NCBI GenBank assembly: GCA_019057385.1
Contig: JAHQJS010000004.1
Location: 384,001 to 448,000, forward strand
Length of the DNA: 64,000 nt
Reading direction: 5' to 3'
Source: Candidatus Borrarchaeum weybense
Lineage (GTDB): Archaea; Asgardarchaeota; Sifarchaeia; Borrarchaeales; Borrarchaeaceae
The notes beneath the pieces are model-generated. The model did not search any database. It had not been told where the DNA came from and saw only the letters and a list, made by a program, of their open reading frames with translations. Positions within the stretch are counted from its first letter, which is position 1; each line of letters begins with the position of its first letter. Positions 24,047-41,385 of this stretch are shown one piece after another. A program made the position numbers and the translations under genes.

Positions 24047-24976
24047 ATGGAATTTGAATACGGAGAGATTTATCCTTTTGACGAAGAAGGAGTTAACTAT
24101 TCTGGTACGAGTTGGTATGAACTGGTCGGGCTAGACACGGCAAAACAAAAACTTGAACAGTTTGTAAAGGCAATATTGCAGCAATCCTTTTTTGAAGATA
24201 CACGACTTCCCTTTAGACCCTCTATTCTTTTACAGGGTCCCCCTGGTACAGGAAAGACCGCTCTTACTCTTGCTTTTGGTCAAAAAGAAAAATTCCCCAT
24301 TATTATCTTGCTTACTACTAAAATTATCCGCGCAAAACTAGGTCAATCGGGGGAAAATCTAAGTAATGCCTTTGCGTACGTCAAAGATTATGCTATTCAG
24401 AGAAAAAAACCATTGATATTGTTCATCGATGAATTTGACTCTTTCGCTCGCCAACGGGATGACGTACAAGAAATAGGTGAGATTAAGCGGTTGGTTAATT
24501 CGTTATTAACTGAATTAGATGTTTTAATCGCCCAACATAAGAATATTATTCTCATTGCAGCTACTAATCATGCTAACACCATTGATAGGGCCGCATTCCG
24601 AAGATTTGCTATTCAAATTGATTTTACTATTCCAGCACCTGAGTTACGTCATCATATTTGGAGTGAGTTTCACCGTAGAATTCAGTTAAGAATTCCAGAG
24701 TGTAAGTGGGATCTTGACACATTAGTGGAACGAACTGAAGGATATACTGCAGCTGATATCGAGCGTATCGTTCTTAGCGCAGCTATCGAATACATACATC
24801 AGGATCTCGACACAATCAATACGGAATTGCTTCTCCAACAATTAAGGTATGTGACACCCACATCCAAGCACATGGGCAAGGAAGAATTGTCTGATCTTTT
24901 AGACCTAGATAGTATTGATCTCCGCAAGATTAAAGGAATTACCGATGGATTTAAGACTCAAGCAAGTCGTTTATAA
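24047..24976 (+). CDS. AAA+ ATPase (classic clade, single domain)
   Basis: GPPGTGKT, LFIDEFD, AATNH..IDRAAFRRF, GYTAADI. Confidence 0.92.
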   Translation: MEFEYGEIYPFDEEGVNYSGTSWYELVGLDTAKQKLEQFVKAILQQSFFEDTRLPFRPSILLQGPPGTGKTALTLAFGQKEKFPIIILLTTKIIRAKLGQSGENLSNAFAYVKDYAIQRKKPLILFIDEFDSFARQRDDVQEIGEIKRLVNSLLTELDVLIAQHKNIILIAATNHANTIDRAAFRRFAIQIDFTIPAPELRHHIWSEFHRRIQLRIPECKWDLDTLVERTEGYTAADIERIVLSAAIEYIHQDLDTINTELLLQQLRYVTPTSKHMGKEELSDLLDLDSIDLRKIKGITDGFKTQASRL

Positions 24977-27900
24977 CTCTCTTTTGTGGAAAGTAACGGA
25001 CGCCAAGAGTATGAGTTCAAAAGAAAGCTTAAAAACAGCGAACTTCCAAGACATGTATCTGGTTTTAAAAGCTGTCGAAGTAAACAATTTCGGAATACAT
25101 AAGCATTTAACAATGTCCTTTGAGAAACCTATCAACTTAATTGTTGGGGCAAACGCAGTTGGAAAAACTACACTCTTAGATGCTGTTAGCATTGCTTTAG
25201 GTGGAGAGAGTGATCGCTACGGGACTCTCAAAGATTTAGTAGGTTATGTTGGACCCGCGGGAGACAAAGCTTCAGTAACAGTGTACTTGAGAAATCCGTC
25301 TAATGAGAACAAAAATCACCCACTTGTTGACTATGGAATATATACGAACTACGTGAAAGAAGAATTAAAAATTGAGGTCACAATCACCCGAGATTCAGTT
25401 TACTGGCAAGTAAATGATCGACAAAAAAAGCATGGCCGACAAGAAATTCGGAAGATGCTTCAAAGTGCAACCATTCGGATAGATATGTCTGATGAGATTT
25501 TGTTTACACGTAAAGACACGATTGATAAGTTCATGAGCGGAAGTCCTGTCGAACAGTTCCAACAAATTCTCACTTCTCTTAAACTCGCGAACTTACAGGA
25601 AGATATCCAAAACACTCAAGGTGAAGTCAAGAATTTACAAAATAAACTCCCGGAATTAGATTATCGACGGAAAAGTCTTGAGAAGGATCTTGAAGTAGCT
25701 AAACAGTTGAAAGAACAATATGAGCGAAAGTTTGACTTATTAGACCAAAAAGCAAGATTAACAAACATCTTGAACTGGATAGAGTATAATGAATGGCAAA
25801 CACGACTAATAGAGTTAGATGAGCAGACAACTCTCTTAAAAAAAGATCTTGAGGAGTTACAACACGAATACCAAGAAATAGAAACTCAATCTAAGCAAAA
25901 CAAACGAAATGAGCAGTTATTACAAGACCAGCTAAACGAGATGCAAACAAGGCTGACAGATTTAACCCGCCAAAATGAGGAGAGACTCCGAAATATCGGC
26001 TTAATAAAAGAAGATATTGCTGGGAAGGAGGCGGAACACCGTATCAAAGATCAGTACCTTCAAGAAAATGTTCAAAGACAGGAAAATTTGCAAAAAATCT
26101 ACCAAGAAGAAATTATTAAAGGCTCTCTCTTGTCATTAGAAGATTGGAAGAATTCTAAACCATTAATTGAGGAAAAAAGACGTGCACTAAAAGACTTACA
26201 GCAAAAAGATATACAGGCACTACAGACATGCAATAGCCGGTTATCACATCTTGCCACACGGATCAAGCGGTATGATACGCAGGAAAATCAAATACTCAAT
26301 GAGTTAGCTAAACTGAATCAAACTGTAACAAGTGGAACAAAATTTAATGCTGGGGAACACCATGTATTAGCACTACGCCGAGCCTTGGATCAGCTTCTTT
26401 GGGGGAAAAAAGTTACAAAACCGCTATTTCAGGAGATTTTTATAAAACCTGATGGCGAACTCTGGGAAGGAGCCATAAATCATGCGCTTGGGGGATTGCG
26501 TTCATATGTTCTAGCTAAGGATGCGGCAACAATTAATCAATTGAGAGAGTACATGGAACAGAACAATTTCAGTGTTTGGGTCGCACGTTTACCCAAAATA
26601 GCAAATATTCCAACTAGATCACTACAATCTCTTCCTGAAAACTTAAAAGATCTTATAGTAGGCTGGATTGACGATTTTTTGGAGTTTGATGATCCATTTA
26701 TTGCTACCTATCTTTTAGCGAGAACTCGCGCACTTCTGGTAAAGAGTAATGCTTCCGCCACTGAACTCTTAGAACTGGCTAAAATAACGGGCGCAGACGT
26801 GTACACTGCGCAACCCTCGGTATTTAAACCTGATGGACGCTTCCGCACGAACGTCCGAACCTCCTACTCATTAGGAAAAAGAACTGATAATATCGAGAAA
26901 GTCATAGAACTTCAAACAAAATTAGAGCACATCAAAAATGAACGCGCAAAATTAATAGACCAGCGTTTAAAGATTCTTGAAAAAAAGGCAGAGCTTCAGG
27001 ATAAGCAAGCTCAATTGCAAGAACAAATCGATGCATTACAAGATCAAATCACTCACATGGCCAAGAAGGATCCTACATCGATACTGAAATCTATTGAAGA
27101 ACTAGACAAAACGATTAAGGAGCAACATAAAGAAATTGAGCGAATAGCAGAAGAGTTAGAAAGCACTAAGACTCGATTAAAGCCATTAACAGAGAATACC
27201 TTCATTGAGGAAATTAAATACCTTAATAATGAGATCCCTAAAATTCAAGAACAGATTGGGGGATATAGAACTCACGACCAAGTTCTTGAAAATCGTTTAA
27301 TTGAATTAAAGTCAAAAATTGAAACTATGAAAGCCGAATATCAAGATATTGAAAGAGATCTAGAGCTCCGCCGCAGTAAAGTTGCACAATATAAAGAAAG
27401 CTTGGTCGATCCTGCCCCAAAACGCCTTCCACCCAAAACAAAAGTTCTGAGAGAAATTTATGAAATTGATGGTGCTGTAAATCAAATCACAGCCACTGCT
27501 TATGATGTAGAGCAGTACGAGAAACTAGAGAAATATTATCAAGAAACAGGACAAGATATTGAGAGAGTTTCACAAGCACTAGATGAAACTAGACAGCAAC
27601 TTGAAGATTACTATCAAGAATGGAAACAACGAGTCAAGTTTGTTCTTCAACAGCTTCAGGATGTGGCGAACTTTTTACTATCTCCTTTCATTCAGGTTAG
27701 ATGCTCTACAACTAATTCCTTGGATATGAAACAGATTGGTCTAAAAGTAGAGTTTACTAACAAGACGAATGGAAACGAGAAATATGAACTTTATCATGTG
27801 GCTTCCGGTGGTGAGCGTGCTTTAATCACTCAATCATTGTTCTTAGCTTTACATACGCTGAATCGAAGTTCTCCTATCCACATTGTCGATGAATTTACTC

Positions 27901-28106
27901 AACGTTTGGACGAAAAATATCGCGGTCACGCCTTTATCATGGTTAAACGCCTTCTAGAAAAACTCAAGGAAATAAACGGACAGAATGGCGGTTATAACTG
28001 GAATCTGATTCCTCAGCTCATTTTAGTTGCACCAATAGTAGTAGGAAGCTATATCCCTCCAGAAATAGATACTCAATATTTATTCAAAGTAACTAAACTG
28101 AGTTAA
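24915..28106 (+). CDS. SMC-family ATPase, SMC5/6-like
   Basis: Walker A GANAVGKT, two coiled coils around a hinge-like region, signature ASGGER, Walker B IVDEFTQRLD. Confidence 0.85.
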   Translation: MISARLKELPMDLRLKQVVYNSLLWKVTDAKSMSSKESLKTANFQDMYLVLKAVEVNNFGIHKHLTMSFEKPINLIVGANAVGKTTLLDAVSIALGGESDRYGTLKDLVGYVGPAGDKASVTVYLRNPSNENKNHPLVDYGIYTNYVKEELKIEVTITRDSVYWQVNDRQKKHGRQEIRKMLQSATIRIDMSDEILFTRKDTIDKFMSGSPVEQFQQILTSLKLANLQEDIQNTQGEVKNLQNKLPELDYRRKSLEKDLEVAKQLKEQYERKFDLLDQKARLTNILNWIEYNEWQTRLIELDEQTTLLKKDLEELQHEYQEIETQSKQNKRNEQLLQDQLNEMQTRLTDLTRQNEERLRNIGLIKEDIAGKEAEHRIKDQYLQENVQRQENLQKIYQEEIIKGSLLSLEDWKNSKPLIEEKRRALKDLQQKDIQALQTCNSRLSHLATRIKRYDTQENQILNELAKLNQTVTSGTKFNAGEHHVLALRRALDQLLWGKKVTKPLFQEIFIKPDGELWEGAINHALGGLRSYVLAKDAATINQLREYMEQNNFSVWVARLPKIANIPTRSLQSLPENLKDLIVGWIDDFLEFDDPFIATYLLARTRALLVKSNASATELLELAKITGADVYTAQPSVFKPDGRFRTNVRTSYSLGKRTDNIEKVIELQTKLEHIKNERAKLIDQRLKILEKKAELQDKQAQLQEQIDALQDQITHMAKKDPTSILKSIEELDKTIKEQHKEIERIAEELESTKTRLKPLTENTFIEEIKYLNNEIPKIQEQIGGYRTHDQVLENRLIELKSKIETMKAEYQDIERDLELRRSKVAQYKESLVDPAPKRLPPKTKVLREIYEIDGAVNQITATAYDVEQYEKLEKYYQETGQDIERVSQALDETRQQLEDYYQEWKQRVKFVLQQLQDVANFLLSPFIQVRCSTTNSLDMKQIGLKVEFTNKTNGNEKYELYHVASGGERALITQSLFLALHTLNRSSPIHIVDEFTQRLDEKYRGHAFIMVKRLLEKLKEINGQNGGYNWNLIPQLILVAPIVVGSYIPPEIDTQYLFKVTKLS

Positions 28107-28280
28107 GATCCGTAAATCTACACTTGTAGGGCTTATACGTTATTATCAAATATTGTGAAGAATAAAAAAAATATTTATTGTACATTTACATAATATGATC
28201 AAAATATGAAGACTTGAAAAATTAATGTTTCATTTTCATAATTGTACATGTTCCAGTATGACGACTATAAAGGTGACTAA

Positions 28281-31133
28281 GTGATAGAACATAAACCTTC
28301 CTCGAAGGAAACGTATCTACTAGGCATTGACTTAGGCACTACTAACACCTATGCCTGTTTATCAAAAATTCGAGATGAAAGATTATTAGATATTATTCCT
28401 ATAGGTATAACGCAACTCCGACAAAGTTTTCAGACAACTACTGACGAGTGTTTACCTTCGGTAGTTTACTTTCTTAAACAAGAAGAATTTGGTGTAAATT
28501 GTCTTGTAGGTAAAGGCGCTAAGGAACTTATTACTTCAGAACCAGAACGGGTTATCTGTTCGTCTAAAACTCACATTGGAACCGATAAAGTCTACAAGAT
28601 CAACGGGATGTCTTATATACCCCGTGATATCGCAGCAATTATTTTTGATACAGTCAGGCAGAGTGTGCAAGTATCCTCTCCAGAATATCTCCAAGGCGAT
28701 ATAATTGTAGGTGTTCCATCTCGATTTAATGCAGAACAAAAGGCAGATACTCTTAAGGCTGCAGAAAGAATATTTACGAAAGCATCAACTATCTCTTTAG
28801 TGGAGGAACCAGAAGCTATTGCTTTGTGGTATCTCCATGAGGAGATTAATACTGACAGTAAAGATACCTTTCTTAAAAAATGGTGTTTTGGAAAAAGGCG
28901 ATTTTTAGTTATAGATATGGGTGGGGGAACGTTAGATGTAGCCATTATCGAGGCGACACTACGTGACGATGTCGAATTTGATAAAGAGAATCCAAAAACA
29001 TATCCAATAGTAAAACGAATAGCAATTGGTGAATTTACTCAATGTGCAGGAGATGAATTTGACAAATTAATAGCGGAGAAACTACGCGTAGAACTTTATC
29101 CTAATCTTTCAGACGAGGAATATGAACACTACAAGCCATGTTTTCTCGAACAAGCGGAACGGATTAAGTTGGCTATTAGTCTGAAGATGCGAATGCAGGA
29201 CGCTTCCACTACGGTCCGAATACTGTTCTATTTATTAAGCACACATGAACCAAAAGAAAGCATATGGGATGTTGATAAGTACTATAACGCAGTTAAATCA
29301 CTACTTCCTCCCTCTGGCTTTACGTTTTATCATGATTATATCGAGGAATACAATCGAAAACAATGGTTGAAAACTACTATCCTTCGTCCGATTATTGATG
29401 CATATATCCAAATAGATGAGAATGAACGTCTAATTGATGGCCGTTTGTTCGATGTATTCATTCTAGCGGGCGGAATGGCTGAATTTCCCTTAATTGAAGA
29501 CATCTTTCATGAAATTTTAGGTGTTGCACCTGTTCGTCTGCGGAAGGACCCCAAGAGAGCTGTTGCTCGAGGTTTAATTGTTGAACATTATTTTGAGAAA
29601 TTTGACAGTATTTCTAAAAAAACTATCGGACAGACTTATGGCGTTAAAGTTTTTGATCGGAGCAAGCAACAGCCTGTATGGAAAAAATTTATTCGAAGAG
29701 ATGAAGAACTCCCGATCATTAAGAAAAATGTGCTTTCTGGAACATTGAGTGCGAAACAATCTAAGATCCTTTTTTCACTAGGTAAAAAACCTATAGGGGA
29801 GGAGAATTATGCACCTATCCGAGACTACTCGGTTGCATTAGATCCACCCCCAACAGAGCAAATTGCCTTCTCTCTTAATGTTTTAGTGAATGAATCTGGT
29901 GCAATTGAAATAGATGGAAAACGAGGTGATAATTGTGGGTTTATTCGGATAGGGGCATTAACAGGCGATGAAAGAGAAGAAGATTATGAGCCATTAATAC
30001 CTGAAGCGACTGATCGGAAGTTCACTCGTGAAAAACTTAACGAGTTACTTCCTAAAAAGGAATCGATAATTCGACCAAGAGAAGATAAGAGCCCTAAGAC
30101 AGTTTTAATTGAATTTAGGAAAGTTCTTGATCAAGAAAAGAAAAACAGAAGGAAACTCAGTCAACATCGTGAAGAATTTGCAAATTTAAGGAAAATTAGA
30201 AAAGCGCTCCGATCTCTTCAACAGAGTTACAGAAATAGATTTGGAGATCTTAAGAAACTCAAACATAATATAGCCACAAAAAATGTCTGTTTTGATGAAC
30301 TTCGAGAATACGTCCTTCTATTTGGTGATATTGTTAAATCGCATGTTCAGCGTAATGAGCCATGGAAACTTGACCAATTAACTGCATCTATTATCGCTGA
30401 TTTGACGGAAGTGATTCTAGAATATGGTCTACGTGGTGAAGTGCTATTTTCTTTAATGAGGCTCATTAGATATGTTATTCTCAAAATTCCAACTTTCCAG
30501 CCACCTAGATTCCAAGATTTGATTGATTTCGCCTTAGAAGAAAGTGGTAAATGGACTGAAGAGGTTTACTACGCCTTAAGTTTGATGGCAAATCCTTCAT
30601 CTTATCTTATCGACAAAATTATTTTTGCCCTCACATCAAAATACGGATTTAGTGCACTTCATGCCCTAGGCTTGTTTGTTAGACGACAAAATGAAACACA
30701 AAGTTATGATTTTCCAACTATACAAACTATTTGGGTGACTCTTCTTCATTTATTCACAAAAATAATTGAAGATGCTCCCTATGAAATTGAATTACCTCCA
30801 CTCAGCTCTGATATTATAGCCAATAGCAGATTTCAATCAACTAAATTTGACAATTTAAGAAAGAACGAGACATTTCTAGAAAAACTCTTCTTTATATTGG
30901 CTTACTTCGTGAAAAGTGAAGTTGATCTGCCCGAAAAACAGCGATATCCTGAAATGCTCAGAATAATATTTAACAGCAATGAATTACCAGAGATGCTTCA
31001 CTATCAGATCCAATTATGCCTGTACTGGTACGAAGGACAAAAATTCTTAGAAGAAATCGATGCTCGGGATGAAGAATTAGAGACCCAGGAAATAAGTAAT
31101 AGGATTATTGAGTATTATCTCCAAATTAACTAG
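28281..31133 (+). CDS. Divergent Hsp70-like protein with helical C-terminal extension
   Basis: GIDLGTTN, VGVPSRF, EEPEA, IDMGGGTLD, LAGG motifs; C-terminal third unlike DnaK. Confidence 0.85.
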   Translation: MIEHKPSSKETYLLGIDLGTTNTYACLSKIRDERLLDIIPIGITQLRQSFQTTTDECLPSVVYFLKQEEFGVNCLVGKGAKELITSEPERVICSSKTHIGTDKVYKINGMSYIPRDIAAIIFDTVRQSVQVSSPEYLQGDIIVGVPSRFNAEQKADTLKAAERIFTKASTISLVEEPEAIALWYLHEEINTDSKDTFLKKWCFGKRRFLVIDMGGGTLDVAIIEATLRDDVEFDKENPKTYPIVKRIAIGEFTQCAGDEFDKLIAEKLRVELYPNLSDEEYEHYKPCFLEQAERIKLAISLKMRMQDASTTVRILFYLLSTHEPKESIWDVDKYYNAVKSLLPPSGFTFYHDYIEEYNRKQWLKTTILRPIIDAYIQIDENERLIDGRLFDVFILAGGMAEFPLIEDIFHEILGVAPVRLRKDPKRAVARGLIVEHYFEKFDSISKKTIGQTYGVKVFDRSKQQPVWKKFIRRDEELPIIKKNVLSGTLSAKQSKILFSLGKKPIGEENYAPIRDYSVALDPPPTEQIAFSLNVLVNESGAIEIDGKRGDNCGFIRIGALTGDEREEDYEPLIPEATDRKFTREKLNELLPKKESIIRPREDKSPKTVLIEFRKVLDQEKKNRRKLSQHREEFANLRKIRKALRSLQQSYRNRFGDLKKLKHNIATKNVCFDELREYVLLFGDIVKSHVQRNEPWKLDQLTASIIADLTEVILEYGLRGEVLFSLMRLIRYVILKIPTFQPPRFQDLIDFALEESGKWTEEVYYALSLMANPSSYLIDKIIFALTSKYGFSALHALGLFVRRQNETQSYDFPTIQTIWVTLLHLFTKIIEDAPYEIELPPLSSDIIANSRFQSTKFDNLRKNETFLEKLFFILAYFVKSEVDLPEKQRYPEMLRIIFNSNELPEMLHYQIQLCLYWYEGQKFLEEIDARDEELETQEISNRIIEYYLQIN

Positions 31134-33429: not shown

Positions 33430-35133
33430 ATGATCACAATGCCACATATATTGGGATGGTATTCGGTATGGGAACGGTTGGGACGAGCAGGTTATCTAAA
33501 GTTATTTGCTTTTCAGTATAAGGCGGTTTATGCATTCAGGGATGGAAAAGATATATTTGTAAAAGCACCAACGGGTGCAGGAAAGACGCTCATTCCGCTG
33601 ATTTGTGCTACTCTTATTCTTGGAATGAAAAAACGATGTGTGTTCCTTGTACCGACCAGGCGGTTGATCGACCAGACCTATGACCGACTCAAAGACTGGT
33701 TTGAAAGTATACCACATTGCGAAGAAGAGTACAATATCGTAACCTTAACAGGAGATAATCGACCTTCTTACAAAGAAATACGAGAAGTGCACATAATCAT
33801 AACAACCTACGAGTCTTTTAATGGTATGTTGGCAAAACATTACAGACATTCACTTTTGAACAATGTCGGACTTGTGGCGATTGATGAAATGCATTATGTC
33901 GGGGATGTAGAGAGAGGGACGCATCTTGAGGAGGCTATTGTCAAAGCGAAGTTGTGGTTGCGACCTCGTCCTCAGATGATCTACCTTGCGGCTACGTTAG
34001 GGAATATACAAGAAATTGGGGAGTGGTTAAAAGCTACAGTCATCGAAACAAAAAAACGCAAGTCGGAAATCATTGTTGGATCACCCATTAACGTCTATAA
34101 TGAGGATGAACGGTTAAAGGTTATTGCTCAGTTAGTTAAAGAAACGGATCAGATAGAGATAGGGGCAAAGGAAACTGACAAAAGATGTGTGCTGGTTTTT
34201 TGTAGATCGAGATGGCATGCCGAAACTAGAGCACAGAATCTTGCAAAAATGTTGGAGAAGGAAGGATACAAAAAAACTGTTTCATATAGCCACAGAGGAC
34301 TGAAAACTGTGGAACGACAAAAGCGGATGAAAGCGTTTCAAAAGGGTGAAATTGACGTGTTGTTCACCACAACAGAATACAAGGAGGGTGTGAATGCTCC
34401 AGTCCTGCGGGTCATCATAGCTGATACCGAGGTGTTCAATTCTCAGGACATTGAACAGATGATCGGAAGGGCAGCCCGTCCGCGATTTTTTCAGATCGGA
34501 TATGCAAATCTGATTATTCAGGGAAACATAGAAGACATTCTCGAAAATAAAAGAATAAGGATAGAGGAAGGGGTAGCCCATTTTGAGGAATCACCATTGG
34601 AAAGTTGGGCAAAATATCATTTGAACGAGATCATCCTCAACAGGTTAGCTAAGGGTGCCTGTTCGATAGGTCGGCTTATTAGGTATCTCAAAGAGTTTTA
34701 TTTTTACTTCGAGGATACAACTCAGATAAAGAATTGGTATAAAGTTATGGAAAACGCAATAAGTGAACGAGAGATGTTTATGCTTACCGCAGACAACTAT
34801 ATGATACTCTTCTCTTTAATAGATAATGACGATAGATACAATGCGAAGGATAAGAAGAACTTTCACTCTTTCGTAACTGAATTCCTGATGCGTAGTCGCA
34901 AGTGCGCTGAAACACAAAAAAGAAGGCGTAAAAGGGATAAAAAACTCGTACTTGAAAAGAAGATGGCTCTTGTTTTCTTGAAAGAATACTTAACTAATAA
35001 ACTAAAACGTTATGATGCTGAGCTAAAAACTCAAGTTAAAACTCATCTAGGCTACCTCATCCATATTGGGTTTCTTAAAAAACAGGAACTGGAATCTAAG
35101 GCAATAAAGGAAGGATTAGGAAGTGCAGTCTAA
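33430..35133 (+). CDS. Ski2/Hel308-like SF2 helicase (N-terminal part of a split helicase-Cas1 gene)
   Basis: APTGAGKT, DEMH, LAAT, HRGL, QMIGRAARP; ends midway through the winged-helix domain. Confidence 0.88.
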   Translation: MITMPHILGWYSVWERLGRAGYLKLFAFQYKAVYAFRDGKDIFVKAPTGAGKTLIPLICATLILGMKKRCVFLVPTRRLIDQTYDRLKDWFESIPHCEEEYNIVTLTGDNRPSYKEIREVHIIITTYESFNGMLAKHYRHSLLNNVGLVAIDEMHYVGDVERGTHLEEAIVKAKLWLRPRPQMIYLAATLGNIQEIGEWLKATVIETKKRKSEIIVGSPINVYNEDERLKVIAQLVKETDQIEIGAKETDKRCVLVFCRSRWHAETRAQNLAKMLEKEGYKKTVSYSHRGLKTVERQKRMKAFQKGEIDVLFTTTEYKEGVNAPVLRVIIADTEVFNSQDIEQMIGRAARPRFFQIGYANLIIQGNIEDILENKRIRIEEGVAHFEESPLESWAKYHLNEIILNRLAKGACSIGRLIRYLKEFYFYFEDTTQIKNWYKVMENAISEREMFMLTADNYMILFSLIDNDDRYNAKDKKNFHSFVTEFLMRSRKCAETQKRRRKRDKKLVLEKKMALVFLKEYLTNKLKRYDAELKTQVKTHLGYLIHIGFLKKQELESKAIKEGLGSAV

Positions 35134-37468
35134 GGTAATAAAGAACGGGAAATATAGCGTAACAGAAACTGGACAATGGGCAAGTCAATTTCTATTAAAG
35201 ACCAGCGATGCAAAGAAGATCCACAAATTTCTCCAGACACAGTATTTTTATTCAGAAGACGACGCTTGTAAAAAACTGGCGACTCTTATAAGTGAGAGTG
35301 TCCGTGAGAACGATAATTCGCGATATAGAGCGCAACAATATGAGTTGTTCATATTATCTTTAGTAGAAGGGTTCGATATTGATGAGGCAGCGGAAAACGC
35401 TCGGATGCGACAAGGGGATGCCGAAGGGTGCAGAAGAACTGCCGCGTGGATTGCAGAGGCAGTTAATGCCTACGTTGGAAAGAACATTCCGAAGATCGCG
35501 GAAATGGCAGAAGGAATTAGTGAAGCGCTTACCGTAGATAAAAGAAGGGAAATAGGACCTGGGGTGCGAAGTTATGCAAAAGAGAAACCCTCGTCATATC
35601 CAGGTATTCAAAAAACAATTTGTTCTGTTATTAATCAATTAGGAATTTGCACATATGATGCGATCCATAACATAATTACTGACAAATATGGTGAGTCAGT
35701 AGATCGAACGACAACAATTTGGAACATCCTTGATTTAAGGGCGAAAGACGAAGTTATAACTTTATCAAGAGGCAAGGGAATAGGGCGTCCCGTAATCCAT
35801 GTGTGTAAAAAGGGAATGAATGTACCTGAACATATGCGCAAGACTTGCGGATCCTGTGTATTTTACATATCCTGTGACGATGATGAAAAAGAACGAGACA
35901 ATCAAAGATTTATCTGTGAACTGCGAAGGGAATGCAACAAGCGCGTGGAAAAAAATATTGTAAGCACGTACGTTACGAGCAATATGGGTGCGTGTAAATA
36001 TCATAATTCGTCTCAAGAGCGAAAAAGACGAAGTTTTCGTAAATTTGAGAGGACAGACACAGGCAAACCTATCTGCCAAATTTGTAAATCGGATGCCGTT
36101 AAGGAACCAACCGCTTATGATCACTACACCATATGTTCCAATTGTAATTCACAGTATTACTACCTTTGCGACGGCAGGTTCAGTGTTCAGCCAGGTGTCA
36201 GAGATTTATTACAGCAAGCATTAGAAGAAATCTATGGAAAGTCCGTTAAACCTGTTAAAAGGTGTGCAAAACTAGAGGGTTCTTTAGATCGGCAATACGT
36301 TGAATTAACCATTAAGAAAGGGGATGCAGCTCATATTGACCAAAATAAACTCATTTATATTCCAAAAGAGGAGAAGACACGTTCTTATTTGTTAGATGCC
36401 ATTGAATGTGTTAGAGTGCTTGACGGTGCATATATCACGCCTTATGTATATGAGAAACTCGATGACAGAATTTTATCTGGCAAGAATGTGAATAGACCGC
36501 CAAACGCTTCCTTTGAAGGGTATATAAACATACCTGACGTGCACAATCAACTGAAAGAACGTATACAAGAAATTCGAGAGCAAGAAGTTGGTTTGGCATT
36601 GGCGAGGATACTTATAATGGGTAAGAAAATGAATAATGCAATTCTTACTCTGCAAGCTGGTGAGGAGGGATTACTGTGCCCAGTAGATGCCAGCAGGTTA
36701 TTTTTCAAACAAATGAATGTTGTCGCCCATACTATCATGTATTGGACGGGAAATAGAGAAAATCTGCTCAGTTTCGAGGCGGTTGGCGAACGATACGCAT
36801 GGAAAGCAATTAAACGCGCCTTGAAGGATACATCTATGCGCTTTGAAAATCGTACACAGGAACGATATATCTTTTCGGTTCCCTATATCGGCAAAGTTAG
36901 GGCACGATCTCCCTTTAGTGCAGGACTTAATGCCATTTATCGCCGTGTCCTCGAAATATGTAGAGAGGTGCTTTGCGAAAAAGGATTCTCTTGGTTTCCT
37001 GGCGAACTCGTACTCCATTATAGAAGAAGAAAAGACCAACAAATCCCCATTGGAACAGCTCTTGATTTCCGAGAGTTGTTTTTGGCACTGTTCAGATTCA
37101 CTTATATGAAAGCGTGCAAGAAGGATCAAATTAGGAATACAGATTTTGTACTGTCAAGTACATCTCGCGAGGAAAAAGTATATACCCTTACATACGAGGC
37201 AGAGGATAAAGTTAGAGACTTAATCGAAAGCGTCATGAATAAAGAGGTATATTATCTTGGAAAACAGATGTCACTTTGGAAAGCAATGAAAGAATGCGCA
37301 CGTTCACTTCGCAACTTTTTATTAGAGGGATCTAAATTTATTCCTTTTGTCTGCGCATTAAATGAGGAGCAATTTAAAAAGATTTTAAAGACTTTCCAAA
37401 ATATAGAGAGGTTTTGTGGACCTTCAGGTAAAGGACCTCCTGTTTCAATGTTTGATATCTTATCATAA
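35123..37468 (+). CDS. cas1: Hel308 C-terminal domains + HTH + Cys-rich Zn fingers + Cas1 integrase domain
   Basis: N-term YSVTETG..AS and GDAEG...AAWI (Hel308-like); several CxxC motifs. C-term Cas1 pattern LLSFEAVGERYAW...RSPFSAGLNAIY...VLHY...ALDFRELF, with the E/H/E catalytic positions present. Confidence 0.8.
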   Translation: MQSKVIKNGKYSVTETGQWASQFLLKTSDAKKIHKFLQTQYFYSEDDACKKLATLISESVRENDNSRYRAQQYELFILSLVEGFDIDEAAENARMRQGDAEGCRRTAAWIAEAVNAYVGKNIPKIAEMAEGISEALTVDKRREIGPGVRSYAKEKPSSYPGIQKTICSVINQLGICTYDAIHNIITDKYGESVDRTTTIWNILDLRAKDEVITLSRGKGIGRPVIHVCKKGMNVPEHMRKTCGSCVFYISCDDDEKERDNQRFICELRRECNKRVEKNIVSTYVTSNMGACKYHNSSQERKRRSFRKFERTDTGKPICQICKSDAVKEPTAYDHYTICSNCNSQYYYLCDGRFSVQPGVRDLLQQALEEIYGKSVKPVKRCAKLEGSLDRQYVELTIKKGDAAHIDQNKLIYIPKEEKTRSYLLDAIECVRVLDGAYITPYVYEKLDDRILSGKNVNRPPNASFEGYINIPDVHNQLKERIQEIREQEVGLALARILIMGKKMNNAILTLQAGEEGLLCPVDASRLFFKQMNVVAHTIMYWTGNRENLLSFEAVGERYAWKAIKRALKDTSMRFENRTQERYIFSVPYIGKVRARSPFSAGLNAIYRRVLEICREVLCEKGFSWFPGELVLHYRRRKDQQIPIGTALDFRELFLALFRFTYMKACKKDQIRNTDFVLSSTSREEKVYTLTYEAEDKVRDLIESVMNKEVYYLGKQMSLWKAMKECARSLRNFLLEGSKFIPFVCALNEEQFKKILKTFQNIERFCGPSGKGPPVSMFDILS

Positions 37469-37703
37469 ATACAATTCACTTTTTGCTCTCTTTTTCGACT
37501 TGGATTAATTTAGACCATCAACCTCTTCCTTTTGGTTCTCTAAGAAATGCTTCTTCTTGGTGAAAAACCTAACTAAGAATAAATTTGATTCAATGTTTAT
37601 TTAAATGAAAAGAAGAACAAGAAAGGTTTTTTCCTCCATCTCCAAAGACATAGATAAAAACGTTACTAGATCGCTTATTTTTACAAAAGGAGTTCATAAA
37701 ATA

Positions 37704-37750
37704 ATCCGTTATACAAAAAGCGTTATTTAAAAACCGCAATGCTTATATAC
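37704..37750 (+). promoter_or_regulatory. Promoter region of the cas7-like gene; putative target of guide 1
   Basis: TTATATA at 37743-37749, ~34 bp before ATG 37783; 44/47 identical to 38771-38817. Confidence 0.7.
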
Positions 37751-37782: not shown

Positions 37783-38598
37783 ATGAAAAAAACTAAGAAA
37801 CAGATCAATGTTCATGCCTTCACTCCTATTGCGAAACCGATCAATACCTCCATACAGAAAAATTCCACTATGCTTCTTTTGGGAGAAATTCCGTATGTCA
37901 ATGGATCGAAAACATTTACTACCAAGCTGTATTATCTCAAAGGTTTGCGAGGAATGCTGAGGCATGCCTGCATGGACTTAGCACGTGCTTACGATATCGA
38001 GGTCTGTCACAGTTCTGAAAAGACTGAACTCAGGGATGGGACAAAACTCGTCTCGCAAGGGTTTCATCCGCTGGGTGCCTGTGATCCTCCCTGCATTCTG
38101 AGGCGTATCTTCGGTACGTTCAGAGAAGACTCCCGCATTAGTGTTTCCGCCGATCCCATCACTTCTATCAGCCATAAGGAATACATTACCGAAGTTCCCG
38201 TCCAAAAAGTTCATATCGCCAGTGAAAATAGGATTGCTCTTTCCTATGACAGGATCCCCATACAAGACTTTAGACAATCCTATTTTTCAGGTTACTTTAC
38301 CTTTTCCATTGATGCCACCCAATTGACCGATGATGAGATTAAATTTCTCTTGGAATCGCTGTTGCATATAGAGTACTATGGTGGTGGCAGAAGTGCGGGC
38401 TATGGTCATGTCAAAATTCTAAATGTTGAATTGCTGCACATAACAATCGAAAGAAAATTTGAATCTGAGAACGGAACTCTGAAAGTCGTTGAAGAGGAAA
38501 AAGTAACTCCGCTAGAACTTGATACTCTCGATGACTGGACGGAAAGTATATCCCTATCTGCACTGACACAAGAACTAGAATTGATGGATGGGGAGTGA
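37783..38598 (+). CDS. cas7: Cas7/Csm3-like RAMP protein
   Basis: KGLRGMLRH, C..C..RRIFG, ENRIA, C-terminal G-rich loop GGGRSAGYG.V. Confidence 0.85.
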   Translation: MKKTKKQINVHAFTPIAKPINTSIQKNSTMLLLGEIPYVNGSKTFTTKLYYLKGLRGMLRHACMDLARAYDIEVCHSSEKTELRDGTKLVSQGFHPLGACDPPCILRRIFGTFREDSRISVSADPITSISHKEYITEVPVQKVHIASENRIALSYDRIPIQDFRQSYFSGYFTFSIDATQLTDDEIKFLLESLLHIEYYGGGRSAGYGHVKILNVELLHITIERKFESENGTLKVVEEEKVTPLELDTLDDWTESISLSALTQELELMDGE

Positions 38599-38648
38599 AA
38601 AAGATGTTGAATAACCTGCAATACTCGTTATTTCCTTTTTTCTCATCT

Positions 38649-38851
38649 AAGACGGAATGCTTCCCTTGTAGCGAGGGGAGCACGTTCTTGTGCATGAGAC
38701 TGAACCATCTTGGAGGTCTGACGCCTCGTCTCATGGGGATGGATGACAGGCAGGGGACGAGAAAAGTCACATCCGATTTACAAAAAGCGTTATTTAAAAA
38801 CCGCAATGCTTCTATACAATTAATATGCCCGTTATAACATTGATAACGGGC
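38649..38851 (+). ncRNA. Putative guide RNA 1: scaffold 38649-38770, variable segment, 3' hairpin 38827-38851
   Basis: Scaffold homologous to 39758-39875 with compensatory stem changes. Variable part matches 37704-37750. Hairpin gcccgttat-N7-ataacgggc. Confidence 0.7.
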
Positions 38852-38875: not shown

Positions 38876-39691
38876 ATGACACAAAATTGGTTTAAATTGA
38901 TAGGAATCACCAAAACGCCTGTGATCACAAGAAGAAGGCGGTTTTTCTATAAATTAGGAGTAATCTCCATTCATGGTCGCCCCAGAGTCTTCGGTAAACT
39001 CACAAAAGGGGAAAGACGCCCACCTAAGACGTATAGGGCGTGGTATGGTGACGTCGAGTTTATCGTGCCAGAAGACAGACTTGACGACGCGCTCGCCATT
39101 GATTGTTTCGGGAGTTTCACTAATGAAGGCATGGGACAAATGCAATGGAAAGAAGCGAAAAAACTCTACAAAAAACCCCTCTATACTCCGAGAAAAGCCA
39201 AGATCAGAAAAATGCTTCCGAAACTTTCAGAGACGCAAGAAAAACTATTAATAGGTTTTTTACTTCATGATTTTGTCCATACCGAAAAACACAACAGCAA
39301 AATCTATACCGAGGTTAATATATATGATGGATTTGTCTATGAATTGGCTAAAAATCATCATAATTACACGATAGACGATAGAGAAATCCCTTTGCTCTGT
39401 ACTCTTCAATATTACGATAGGCTTTCTTCAAGAATCTCAAGAAAATTCCGCTTTTCTGCGTCCTCACGCTATCGCGTCACTGAAATAGAAAAAATAGATT
39501 TCGACGAACTTAAACAGGAGATCGAAACGCGCCAATATTCCCTATACGCGCTTTATAGTTATGTCTATAAGTCTCAGACACTCAATAAAATCAACGAAGC
39601 ACTCAAATTCGGTTTTTCATCGCTAAAAAATCATCTCTTATTAATGGTTAACCTGTATATTGATGACTCACAAGAGGCTATATACTTATGA
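38876..39691 (+). CDS. Small RAMP (Cas5-like) fused to an HD nuclease-like domain
   Basis: KTPVIT first strand, G-rich loop FGSFTNEGMGQM, then LLHDFVH...NHH...YDRLSS (Cas10/Cas3-type HD pattern). Confidence 0.65.
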   Translation: MTQNWFKLIGITKTPVITRRRRFFYKLGVISIHGRPRVFGKLTKGERRPPKTYRAWYGDVEFIVPEDRLDDALAIDCFGSFTNEGMGQMQWKEAKKLYKKPLYTPRKAKIRKMLPKLSETQEKLLIGFLLHDFVHTEKHNSKIYTEVNIYDGFVYELAKNHHNYTIDDREIPLLCTLQYYDRLSSRISRKFRFSASSRYRVTEIEKIDFDELKQEIETRQYSLYALYSYVYKSQTLNKINEALKFGFSSLKNHLLLMVNLYIDDSQEAIYL

Positions 39692-39720: not shown

Positions 39721-39730
39721 GTTTATATAG
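39721..39730 (+). promoter_or_regulatory. TATA box for guide RNA 2
   Basis: GTTTATATAG ~28 nt upstream of the conserved scaffold start. Confidence 0.55.
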
Positions 39731-39757
39731 GTCTTTGCAAGCGAATATACAAGTTAC

Positions 39758-39957
39758 AAGGCGGAATGTTCCTCGCATCACGCGGAGAACACGTTCTTGT
39801 GCATGAGACTGAACCTGAGAGGTCTGACGCCTCGTAGAAGGGAATGAATGACAGGTAGGGGACGAGAAAGGTCAAAAAACAAGTGGTGTATGCGATAAAG
39901 TGGACGTGTACCAAAAAGTAATATATAAACGATGGAGGGCTCATTTGAGCCCTTTTT
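39758..39957 (+). ncRNA. Putative guide RNA 2: scaffold 39758-39875, segment matching the integration site, terminator-like hairpin
   Basis: Second scaffold copy; 39881-39914 matches the reconstructed empty DUF362 site at 28/34. Confidence 0.72.
39936..39957 (+). terminator. Hairpin plus T-run
   Basis: agggctc-attt-gagccct followed by tttt. Confidence 0.6.
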
Positions 39958-40014: not shown

Positions 40015-40311
40015 TATGATAAAGTGGATGTGTATGAAGGTGGAACTTGTCAATATTGCAAGGCAATCGTCAAAACCGCGCTACAATCTCTACACAAGAA
40101 AGGAGACATTTCGCTAGTCAAAGATATGCAAGTTATTGTTGGTAAAAACCCTTCCGAGCCATATTCGAAATCAAGTTTAGATTTTATTGTAGGCGATTGC
40201 GCATGTGAATCGACAGATTACGAGGGTATTGAAATTCCTGGTTGTCCACCCTTTGACGCTTTCGTAAAAATCAGAAAAGCAGTGCACAACAATGTTTCTG
40301 AGAAAACATAA
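40015..40311 (+). pseudogene. Displaced 3' end of the DUF362 gene (attR-like)
   Basis: YDKVDVYEGGTCQYCK...SEKT is homologous to the C-terminus of 10277-11596; no 5' part. Confidence 0.85.
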
Positions 40312-41172: not shown

Positions 41173-41385
41173 AATGATTATGTTCTTCAATATCACGACA
41201 GAAGTTCCTCAAGTATTTCAGGAAAATTCAGATTTTCTGCGCCATTATTCAGAGAACACTTTCTTGTGAATTAAACTGAACTTAAAAGGTCTAACGCCTT
41301 ATAGAGGTTCATAATAAAACGAAAAGTTAAATTCTATACCTTTAAAATAGCTTGTATACAAATAATGAAAAAAGAAGGAAGATGG

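Follow-up and report, generated by a model that had tools for sequence, protein, structure and literature searches.

ARAMP (Asgard RAMP) has been described as a gene pair for a Cas7-like protein and a Cas5-like/RAMP-nuclease protein, accompanied by a distinct Cas1 homologue and lacking a CRISPR array (Makarova et al. 2020, CRISPR J, as summarised in PMC8730458 and PMC12669027). The passages on ARAMP in these two summaries term its mechanism enigmatic and name no RNA component (PMC8730458, PMC12669027), and those in the latter give HNH and PD-(D/E)xK as the most common nucleases (PMC12669027). CreR and CreA of types I-B, I-E, and V-A are crRNA-like regulatory RNAs from a degenerate mini-CRISPR (repeat-spacer-repeat), with partial complementarity beside a PAM (bioRxiv 10.1101/2023.03.10.532045), and tracr-L mediates autoregulation in type II-A (bioRxiv 10.1101/2024.01.11.575229). 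In Cas7 filaments, every sixth base of the guide is flipped out, leaving 5-nt segments to pair (PMC11127173).

Here, we analysed a stretch of 64,000 nt from Candidatus Borrarchaeum weybense (GCA_019057385.1, JAHQJS010000004.1, positions 384,001-448,000, forward strand), which is called the window below and to which all coordinates refer unless a locus is named. Close homologues carry the NCBI names Candidatus Sifarchaeia archaeon and Promethearchaeota archaeon, which place the host among the Asgard archaea.

Gene content of the locus

The cassette under study contains the following genes.

33430-35133, + strand: gene of a Hel308/Ski2-like DEAD-box helicase (Pfam DEAD, ResIII, and Helicase_C; NCBIfam Hel308-like)
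35123-37468, + strand: gene of a 781-aa protein with a Cas1-like C-terminal domain (PADLOC Cas1, E = 2.4e-10, residues 478-734)
37783-38598, + strand: Cas7-like RAMP gene, 271 aa (Pfam RAMPs, 27.8 bits, cut-off 22.1)
38876-39691, + strand: RAMP-HD gene, 271 aa, with a small RAMP-like N-terminal domain and an HD domain

The 781-aa protein also matched NCBIfam TIGR00287 (cas1) with an E value of 7e-07, which was under the family cut-off. In the relatives L097 and L107, the helicase and Cas1-like genes are fused, and the Cas1-like protein of relatives, in its fusion with the helicase, is annotated PF01867.

The Cas7-like RAMP matched PADLOC Csm3 (E = 1.3e-10), and its nearest sequence relatives are the Csm3-type subunits of RNA-targeting type III complexes. 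When the AlphaFold model of the RAMP was searched with Foldseek, the top matches were Cas7 backbone subunits of types I-D, VII, IV-A, III-E, and III-A, and the DNA-binding Cas7 of types I-D and IV-A was matched equally well. The catalytic Asp of Csm3 could not be placed in the RAMP by sequence search because the matches to solved RAMPs were too weak. In the RAMP-HD protein, the HD motif LHDFVHT and other H and D columns were at least 90% conserved among 27 homologues. Its modelled N-terminal domain gave weak matches to RAMP subunits of Csm and Cmr (E = 6e-03), the protein had no Pfam match, and a PDB sequence search with it yielded nothing useful. A tandem duplication of a whole gene-plus-RNA unit was considered and rejected because the two 271-aa proteins, RAMP and RAMP-HD, are unrelated.

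No CRISPR array was found within the 64-kb window with TRF, and a search of the window against Rfam gave a single sub-threshold CRISPR-DR match, which lies inside a radical-SAM ORF. Genes for Cas6, Cas10, Cas8, and Cas11 are absent from the locus. The genome (4.18 Mb) carries at least 11 paralogous RAMP/RAMP-HD cassettes, six of which are full sets of the helicase, Cas1-like, RAMP, and RAMP-HD genes.

We identify the locus as ARAMP, which is a CRISPR derivative without an array found in Asgard archaea. It resembles ARAMP in the Cas7-like RAMP, the Cas1 homologue, the lack of an array in the window, and the Asgard host, whereas its nuclease domain is HD instead of the HNH and PD-(D/E)xK that are commonest in ARAMP. 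Unlike in the published summaries of ARAMP, the genes are accompanied here by a conserved scaffolded RNA, predicted as described below, with guide-like tails; we found no paper in the literature searched that assigns an RNA component to ARAMP.

A multicopy structured RNA element

The RNA unit between the RAMP and RAMP-HD genes and its match in the RAMP promoter consist of the following features.

38636-38770, + strand: scaffold A, with a T6 run and CTCATC leader (38636-38648) and a structured core (38649-38770) ending in GTCAC at its 3' end
38771-38817, + strand: tail A, the candidate guide 1; positions 2-47 match P1, and position 1 is A
38827-38851, + strand: hairpin closing tail A (MFE fold), with a 9-bp stem and without a T run
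37704-37750, + strand: P1, the candidate target of guide 1, ending on the BRE/TATA box (TTATATA, 37743-37749) of the Cas7-like gene

The 3' end of the scaffold (GTCAC) was set by homology across 56 distinct copies, which come from this genome, four congeners, and metagenomes and which align with covarying hairpins; the genome itself holds about 25 copies. RNAalifold gave -15.9 for the + strand of the 56-copy alignment versus -7.7 for the reverse, and the scaffold appears to be a structured RNA read from the + strand. Rfam gave no family for it. The A copies, located between the RAMP and RAMP-HD genes, have a T6 run in front and no TATA box upstream; the B copies, located after the RAMP-HD gene, are preceded by a TATA box at about 35 nt and followed by a T-run terminator. 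As scaffold A lacks a TATA box of its own, its RNA would come by read-through from the RAMP promoter. A T6 run directly ahead of scaffold A could stop read-through in an archaeon.

The stem of the hairpin closing tail A covaries among clades, CCCGTTA/TAACGGG in one form and CCTCTCTTT/AAAGAGGAGG in another. This hairpin starts 57 nt past scaffold A, and the terminator hairpin of the second copy starts about 59 nt past scaffold B, in agreement with an earlier note on this DNA, which had claimed a similar spacing in both copies. Other identities of the element were also considered. An attC or integron-like site was rejected by eye, as the scaffold ends are non-complementary and the fold consists of local stems, and a likeness to the omega-RNA of TnpB/IscB, where the guide follows the scaffold, was set aside because such a nuclease is absent.

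Several solo scaffolds were observed 4-8 nt ahead of the ATG of ordinary host genes (G000 C4:1262893; L053, L055, and L051 in G306; L063 in G308; metagenome loci L084, L085, and L092). With such a position, the "tail" is simply the start of the host gene's coding sequence, and these scaffolds may ride on host mRNAs or mark the ends of elements. Scaffold-plus-tail units also occur in short tandem runs with a spacing of 170-280 nt, like miniature arrays with 120-nt "repeats" (G308:C9:2389-2981; G000 C5:119448-119806; G306:C73 and C176).

Match of tail A to the RAMP promoter

The segments 38771-38817 and 37704-37750 form a direct repeat with 44/47 identical bases, the mismatches being at tail positions 6, 8, and 42, and the repeat starts at the first base 3' of the GTCAC of scaffold A. 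The earlier note had pointed out this match and its place right after GTCAC, and blastn-short recovered it with an E value of 1.8e-16 within the locus and 1.8e-13 against the whole 4.18-Mb genome. A genome-wide scan detected no other targets of guide 1 and of the homologous tails described below. Tail position 1 is A in nearly all scaffold copies and is therefore part of the constant region. Guide 1 runs in the sense of the genes and hence could not pair with their mRNAs, but only with the bottom DNA strand or with an antisense RNA.

In 10 aligned upstream regions, the TTATATA box is invariant and lies 33-40 nt ahead of the RAMP ATG. The guide match terminates on this box, which in the window stands 33 nt ahead of the RAMP start codon. 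At position 42, the TTATATA of the target (37743-37749) is changed to TTCTATA in the tail, just as the earlier note had read it. This position is a multiple of 6 (6n) at the centre of the TATA box, and tail and target have different bases there in the window, L097, and all of the L2 clade; being a 6n position, it would allow the tail to carry a weakened TATA box without a pairing cost.

The flanks of the target are AT-rich and show no fixed or clear PAM-like motif, and the guide's own flank is the scaffold end. A conserved A-rich stretch was observed in 37674-37703 and the homologous flanks, and position 1 is preceded, at exactly 6 nt, by a GT(C/T)A(T/A)-like motif. The latter faintly echoes the 3' end of the scaffold and could be a self-mark, a PAM-like cue, or chance. 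A scaffold remnant upstream of the target would have made the target an old tail; a search of the window and the 10 upstream regions with nhmmer and the 56-scaffold profile gave no such remnant.

Co-variation of tails and promoters in homologous cassettes

Eleven cassettes were found that have both a scaffold between the RAMP and RAMP-HD genes and a matching promoter, namely that of the window, six other loci of the genome, G308:C46, and the metagenome contigs L076, L097/L098, and L107/L109; they come from the genome studied here, from a sister species, and from four metagenome contigs. In each of them, the tail matches the RAMP promoter of its own cassette. Where the A scaffold and the ancestral upstream region are both present, the match begins at the scaffold end, and the target lies upstream at a distance of about 1,050-1,070 nt. 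The mismatches between tail and promoter are listed below, with position 1 as the first base past the scaffold.

Window: 6, 8, 42
L097 (sister lineage, RAMP 86% identical): 6, 12, 18, 25, 30, 42
C4:524131: 6, 12, 15, 24, 30, 36, 42
Metagenome L076: 6, 12, 24, 30, 36, 42
G308:C46: 6, 12, 15, 24, 30, 36, 42
C4:340459: 6, 12, 18, 24, 28, 36
C5:119448: 6, 24, 30, 36

Between lineages, guide and target share changes in 9-17 non-6n columns. Between the window and L097, the closest lineage in which both copies are readable, there are five such non-6n changes in both (positions 5, 16, 17, 20, and 22). L097 was used because, in the W-like metagenome locus L075, the tail has diverged and the contig starts at the RAMP start codon, so that the target is missing. 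The co-variation of guide and promoter in homologous loci had been set beforehand in the earlier note as a test of its idea, and the outcome over the 11 cassettes was strongly positive.

In loci that lack the promoter target, scaffold A is degenerate (C4:1002322 and L105) or deleted (L096, L100, and L102; by gene spacing, also L010 and L011), and only L106 retains an intact-looking scaffold A despite the absence of the target. On the RAMP tree, about four state changes are required to account for the presence of scaffold A. Its precise deletion was seen in L096 (3317-3413), where the first ~25 nt of the scaffold are joined to the 3' half of the hairpin, and in L102 (2341-2510), where the T run is joined to tail position 9.

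Six-nucleotide register of the mismatches

When nine pairs were pooled, the mismatches by position modulo 6 (0 to 5) numbered 46, 0, 3, 5, 3, and 0; multiples of 6 thus hold 46/57 mismatches and the other positions 11/57. Identity at the non-6n positions was 95-100%, amounting to 38-39 of 39 matches in the window and the L2 lineage, and that at the 6n positions was 14-33%, with the exception of the window (5/7). The per-locus hypergeometric P values ranged from 7.5e-07 to 2e-04, except for the window, where two of three mismatches are at multiples of 6 and the value of 0.056 was not significant. Combination of four lineages by Fisher's method gave P = 5e-12. The letter pairs at the 6n positions differ among lineages, indicating that the mismatch events are independent.

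Codon wobble would load 3 mod 6 and 0 mod 6 equally. As the two classes held 5 and 46 mismatches, respectively, wobble was rejected as the cause of the periodicity, and the claim that the register of guide 1 owes nothing to wobble is upheld by the pooled pairs. Moreover, the ORFs overlapping both copies have their third positions in other registers, as determined by hand from the ORF coordinates, and the frames with third positions at multiples of 3 contain stop codons in the tails of the window and L2. The register reads as that of a Cas7-bound guide, because Cas7 flips out the sixth bases and the adjacent gene is Cas7-like. Tail A is very probably a functional guide, predicted to pair, at the BRE/TATA region of its own gene, with the complementary strand.

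The second RNA unit and the island

The second RNA unit lies downstream of the RAMP-HD gene.

39722-39955, + strand: second RNA unit, with a TATA box (39722-39729), scaffold B (39758-39875), and tail B from 39876
39934-39957, + strand: terminator hairpin with a T run of this unit

Positions 19-35 of tail B match 40018-40034, at the start of a 95-aa ORF at 40024. The earlier note had ascribed one common 6-nt register to both guides. The register is present in this second guide as well, but mismatch positions 30 and 36 fall on third bases of codons in the ORF at 40024, so that wobble can explain them.

The 95-aa ORF (40024-40311) is a displaced C-terminal copy of the 439-aa ORF at 10277-11596, corresponding to 11309-11590 with 82% amino acid identity. 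Elements that integrate into the 3' part of a gene usually leave such a displaced gene 3' end as a scar. Since the ORF at 40024 copies the 3' end of the gene at 10277-11596, the cassette appears to form the right end of a ~28.7-kb island, with a junction sequence to which tail B is similar. The best genome-wide match of 6 of the 17 B or solo tails lies within 2 kb downstream on the same strand.

Several further observations concern these tails and the island. The matches of B or solo tails to same-strand DNA, a few hundred to 1,700 nt downstream, are far above chance; those in G000 are C4:1004299 (+1318), C4:339353 (+519), C3:91911 (+327), C3:65757 (+176), and C5:119719 (+1720). Some mismatches of the B or solo tails are 3-periodic and of coding type (captured coding fragments), and those of the B tail of L075 (+337) are 6-periodic (24, 30, 36, 42, and 48). 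Downstream of a ZIP transporter gene, a decayed third unit was found at 41184-41302, in which 41184-41241 shares 81% identity with an internal segment (39403-39460) of the RAMP-HD gene and is directly joined to a degenerate scaffold fragment (nhmmer, E = 1e-08). At 24915-31133, the island also contains a 1063-aa ORF and encodes a protein of 950 aa whose N-terminal domain is an Hsp70/actin-like ATPase (Pfam HSP70, E = 1e-14); both lack paralogues at the other ARAMP loci.

One may speculate, with considerable doubt, that ARAMP is a complete RNA-guided DNA-addressing system, in which one guide autoregulates and the other addresses an att site for helicase-Cas1 integration or maintenance. If this were true, it would mean RNA-guided integration by a Cas1 integrase without a CRISPR array and a new class of long scaffolded guides.

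Possible autorepression and alternative explanations

Autorepression is the natural reading of a promoter-matching guide, and we lean towards the view that scaffold A and its tail (38636-38851) encode a crRNA-like ARAMP RNA that represses its own RAMP promoter. Such an RNA would consist of a structured 5' scaffold of about 125 nt, a guide of 46-47 nt, and a 3' hairpin, and would probably be produced by read-through from the promoter of the Cas7-like gene. The Cas7-like RAMP would coat the guide in 6-nt steps, and the RAMP-HD protein would probably hold the scaffold end. The guide would then pair with the bottom strand of 37704-37750, over the BRE/TATA of the Cas7-like gene. Because the match ends on the TATA box, the RNP would cover the BRE/TATA region, as archaeal repressors do. 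Occupancy of this site would exclude TBP and TFB, leading to less RAMP transcript and less guide and thereby closing a negative feedback loop. The DNA of the tail may in addition be a weakened RAMP-HD promoter and possibly a second operator. As regards the claim of the earlier note that tail A is an autoregulatory guide, the co-variation and the 6-nt register support the guide, from which we infer the repression. Type III complexes, from which ARAMP is regarded as derived, bind RNA and not dsDNA, which counts against pairing with the promoter DNA. Complementarity extends over nearly the whole guide and the HD motif is conserved; if active, the nuclease would endanger the promoter of its own host, and a near-perfect self-target alongside a conserved HD nuclease is a puzzle raised by this locus.

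The earlier note had itself offered an alternative, a duplicated promoter for the downstream RAMP-HD gene. The tail is indeed 58 nt ahead of the RAMP-HD start and has a TATA-like box; the tail of the C3/C4:340459/C5 clade keeps 13 identical BRE/TATA bases after a 1-nt indel; L102 has no scaffold yet retains the tail, with the TATA box improved; and the B scaffolds carry their own TATA boxes, so that promoters travel with these units. The intact BRE/TATA in one clade and the scaffold-less tail of L102 suggest that part of the tail conservation may be promoter function, and to this extent the alternative holds, in that the tail DNA may also be the promoter of the RAMP-HD gene. It is very improbable, however, that the tail is only such a duplicate, kept alike by descent, gene conversion, or a shared regulator without any RNA pairing. 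This would leave unexplained the mismatches at every sixth position in four lineages, a match starting at the scaffold end, and 40 nt of perfect co-variation upstream of the BRE, a region in which an archaeal core promoter needs nothing. The tails of L2-L4 are closer to each other than to their own promoters, indicating that no gene conversion takes place. The 6-nt register is predicted neither by a drifting duplicated promoter nor by gene conversion or a shared protein operator, and it contradicts the drifting promoter in particular.

Other explanations accept the pairing and assign it a different object or purpose. An antisense RNA running through the promoter region might be bound or cut, in which case the promoter overlap would be incidental or would act via transcriptional interference. 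The kinship of the RAMP with Csm3-type subunits of RNA-targeting complexes and the naming of ARAMP as a type III derivative (PMC12669027) would suit this explanation, but the fold is equally like DNA-binding Cas7 of types I-D and IV-A, an antisense promoter or gene is not apparent, and the match spans the intergenic spacer from about 80 nt upstream of the ATG to the TATA box; we regard an antisense target as improbable. A Cas7-mediated pairing with the promoter whose purpose is not repression is unlikely in our estimation. A promoter-bound RNP could mark the cassette for helicase-Cas1, serving copy control, target immunity, or integration addressing, or could mark "self" and so keep the HD nuclease, whose motif is conserved, from acting on related elements. 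The cassettes sit in mobile islands, the helicase and Cas1-like genes are directly upstream of the target in six cassettes of this genome, and at each locus the second tail has a match in flanking DNA close by, which in the window is the att-like junction of the ~28.7-kb island. Nevertheless, L2 (C4:525096) keeps the target, the scaffold, and the periodic mismatches without a helicase-Cas1 neighbour, there are no integration scars at the promoter, and in every case the target includes the RAMP gene's BRE/TATA box, as a repressor site would.

Comparison with known systems

To our knowledge, lists of CRISPR derivatives have included ARAMP and HRAMP since 2020 as systems without an array, without a known RNA, and with an enigmatic mechanism. 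From sequence alone, the every-sixth-base signature offers evidence for an RNA guide, its identity, the guide start, and one natural target. Promoter-targeting self-regulation is known as a principle, and what would be new is its use in a system to which no RNA is ascribed in the literature searched. If autorepression is true, the promoter-targeting self-regulation of types I, II, and V would be extended to a type III-derived lineage; in the searched literature, we found no report of a regulatory crRNA-like guide for type III or its derivatives, and the CreR preprint is silent on type III. A compact RNP of Cas7 plus one protein with a long programmable guide could also have practical interest.

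As with CreR/CreA and tracr-L, a non-canonical guide encoded in the locus matches the promoter of the effector, for which a feedback loop is predicted here. CreR and CreA are made from a mini-CRISPR, whereas guide 1 has no repeat pair and follows a structured scaffold of about 125 nt. Their complementarity is partial, and cleavage is avoided; that of guide 1 covers about 46 nt and is broken only at every sixth base. Lacking both the mini-CRISPR and the partial complementarity, guide 1 would fall outside the CreR/CreA family. Furthermore, unlike in the CreR/CreA and tracr-L systems, no canonical crRNAs are known to compete with guide 1. The pattern of five paired bases and one unpaired, counted from the 5' constant part, is like that of a class 1 crRNA on a Cas7 filament (PMC11127173). 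In class 1 crRNAs, however, the constant part is an 8-nt repeat-derived handle, whereas here it would be a folded RNA of about 125 nt, with neither an array nor a Cas6 gene in the locus.

In CRISPR-associated transposons (types I-F3 and V-K), a homing guide in the mobile element matches adjoining chromosomal DNA. Tail B, and not guide 1, resembles these homing guides. Guide 1 appears to target the element's own promoter, and the partner enzyme of the cassette is helicase-Cas1 instead of a Tn7-type transposase.
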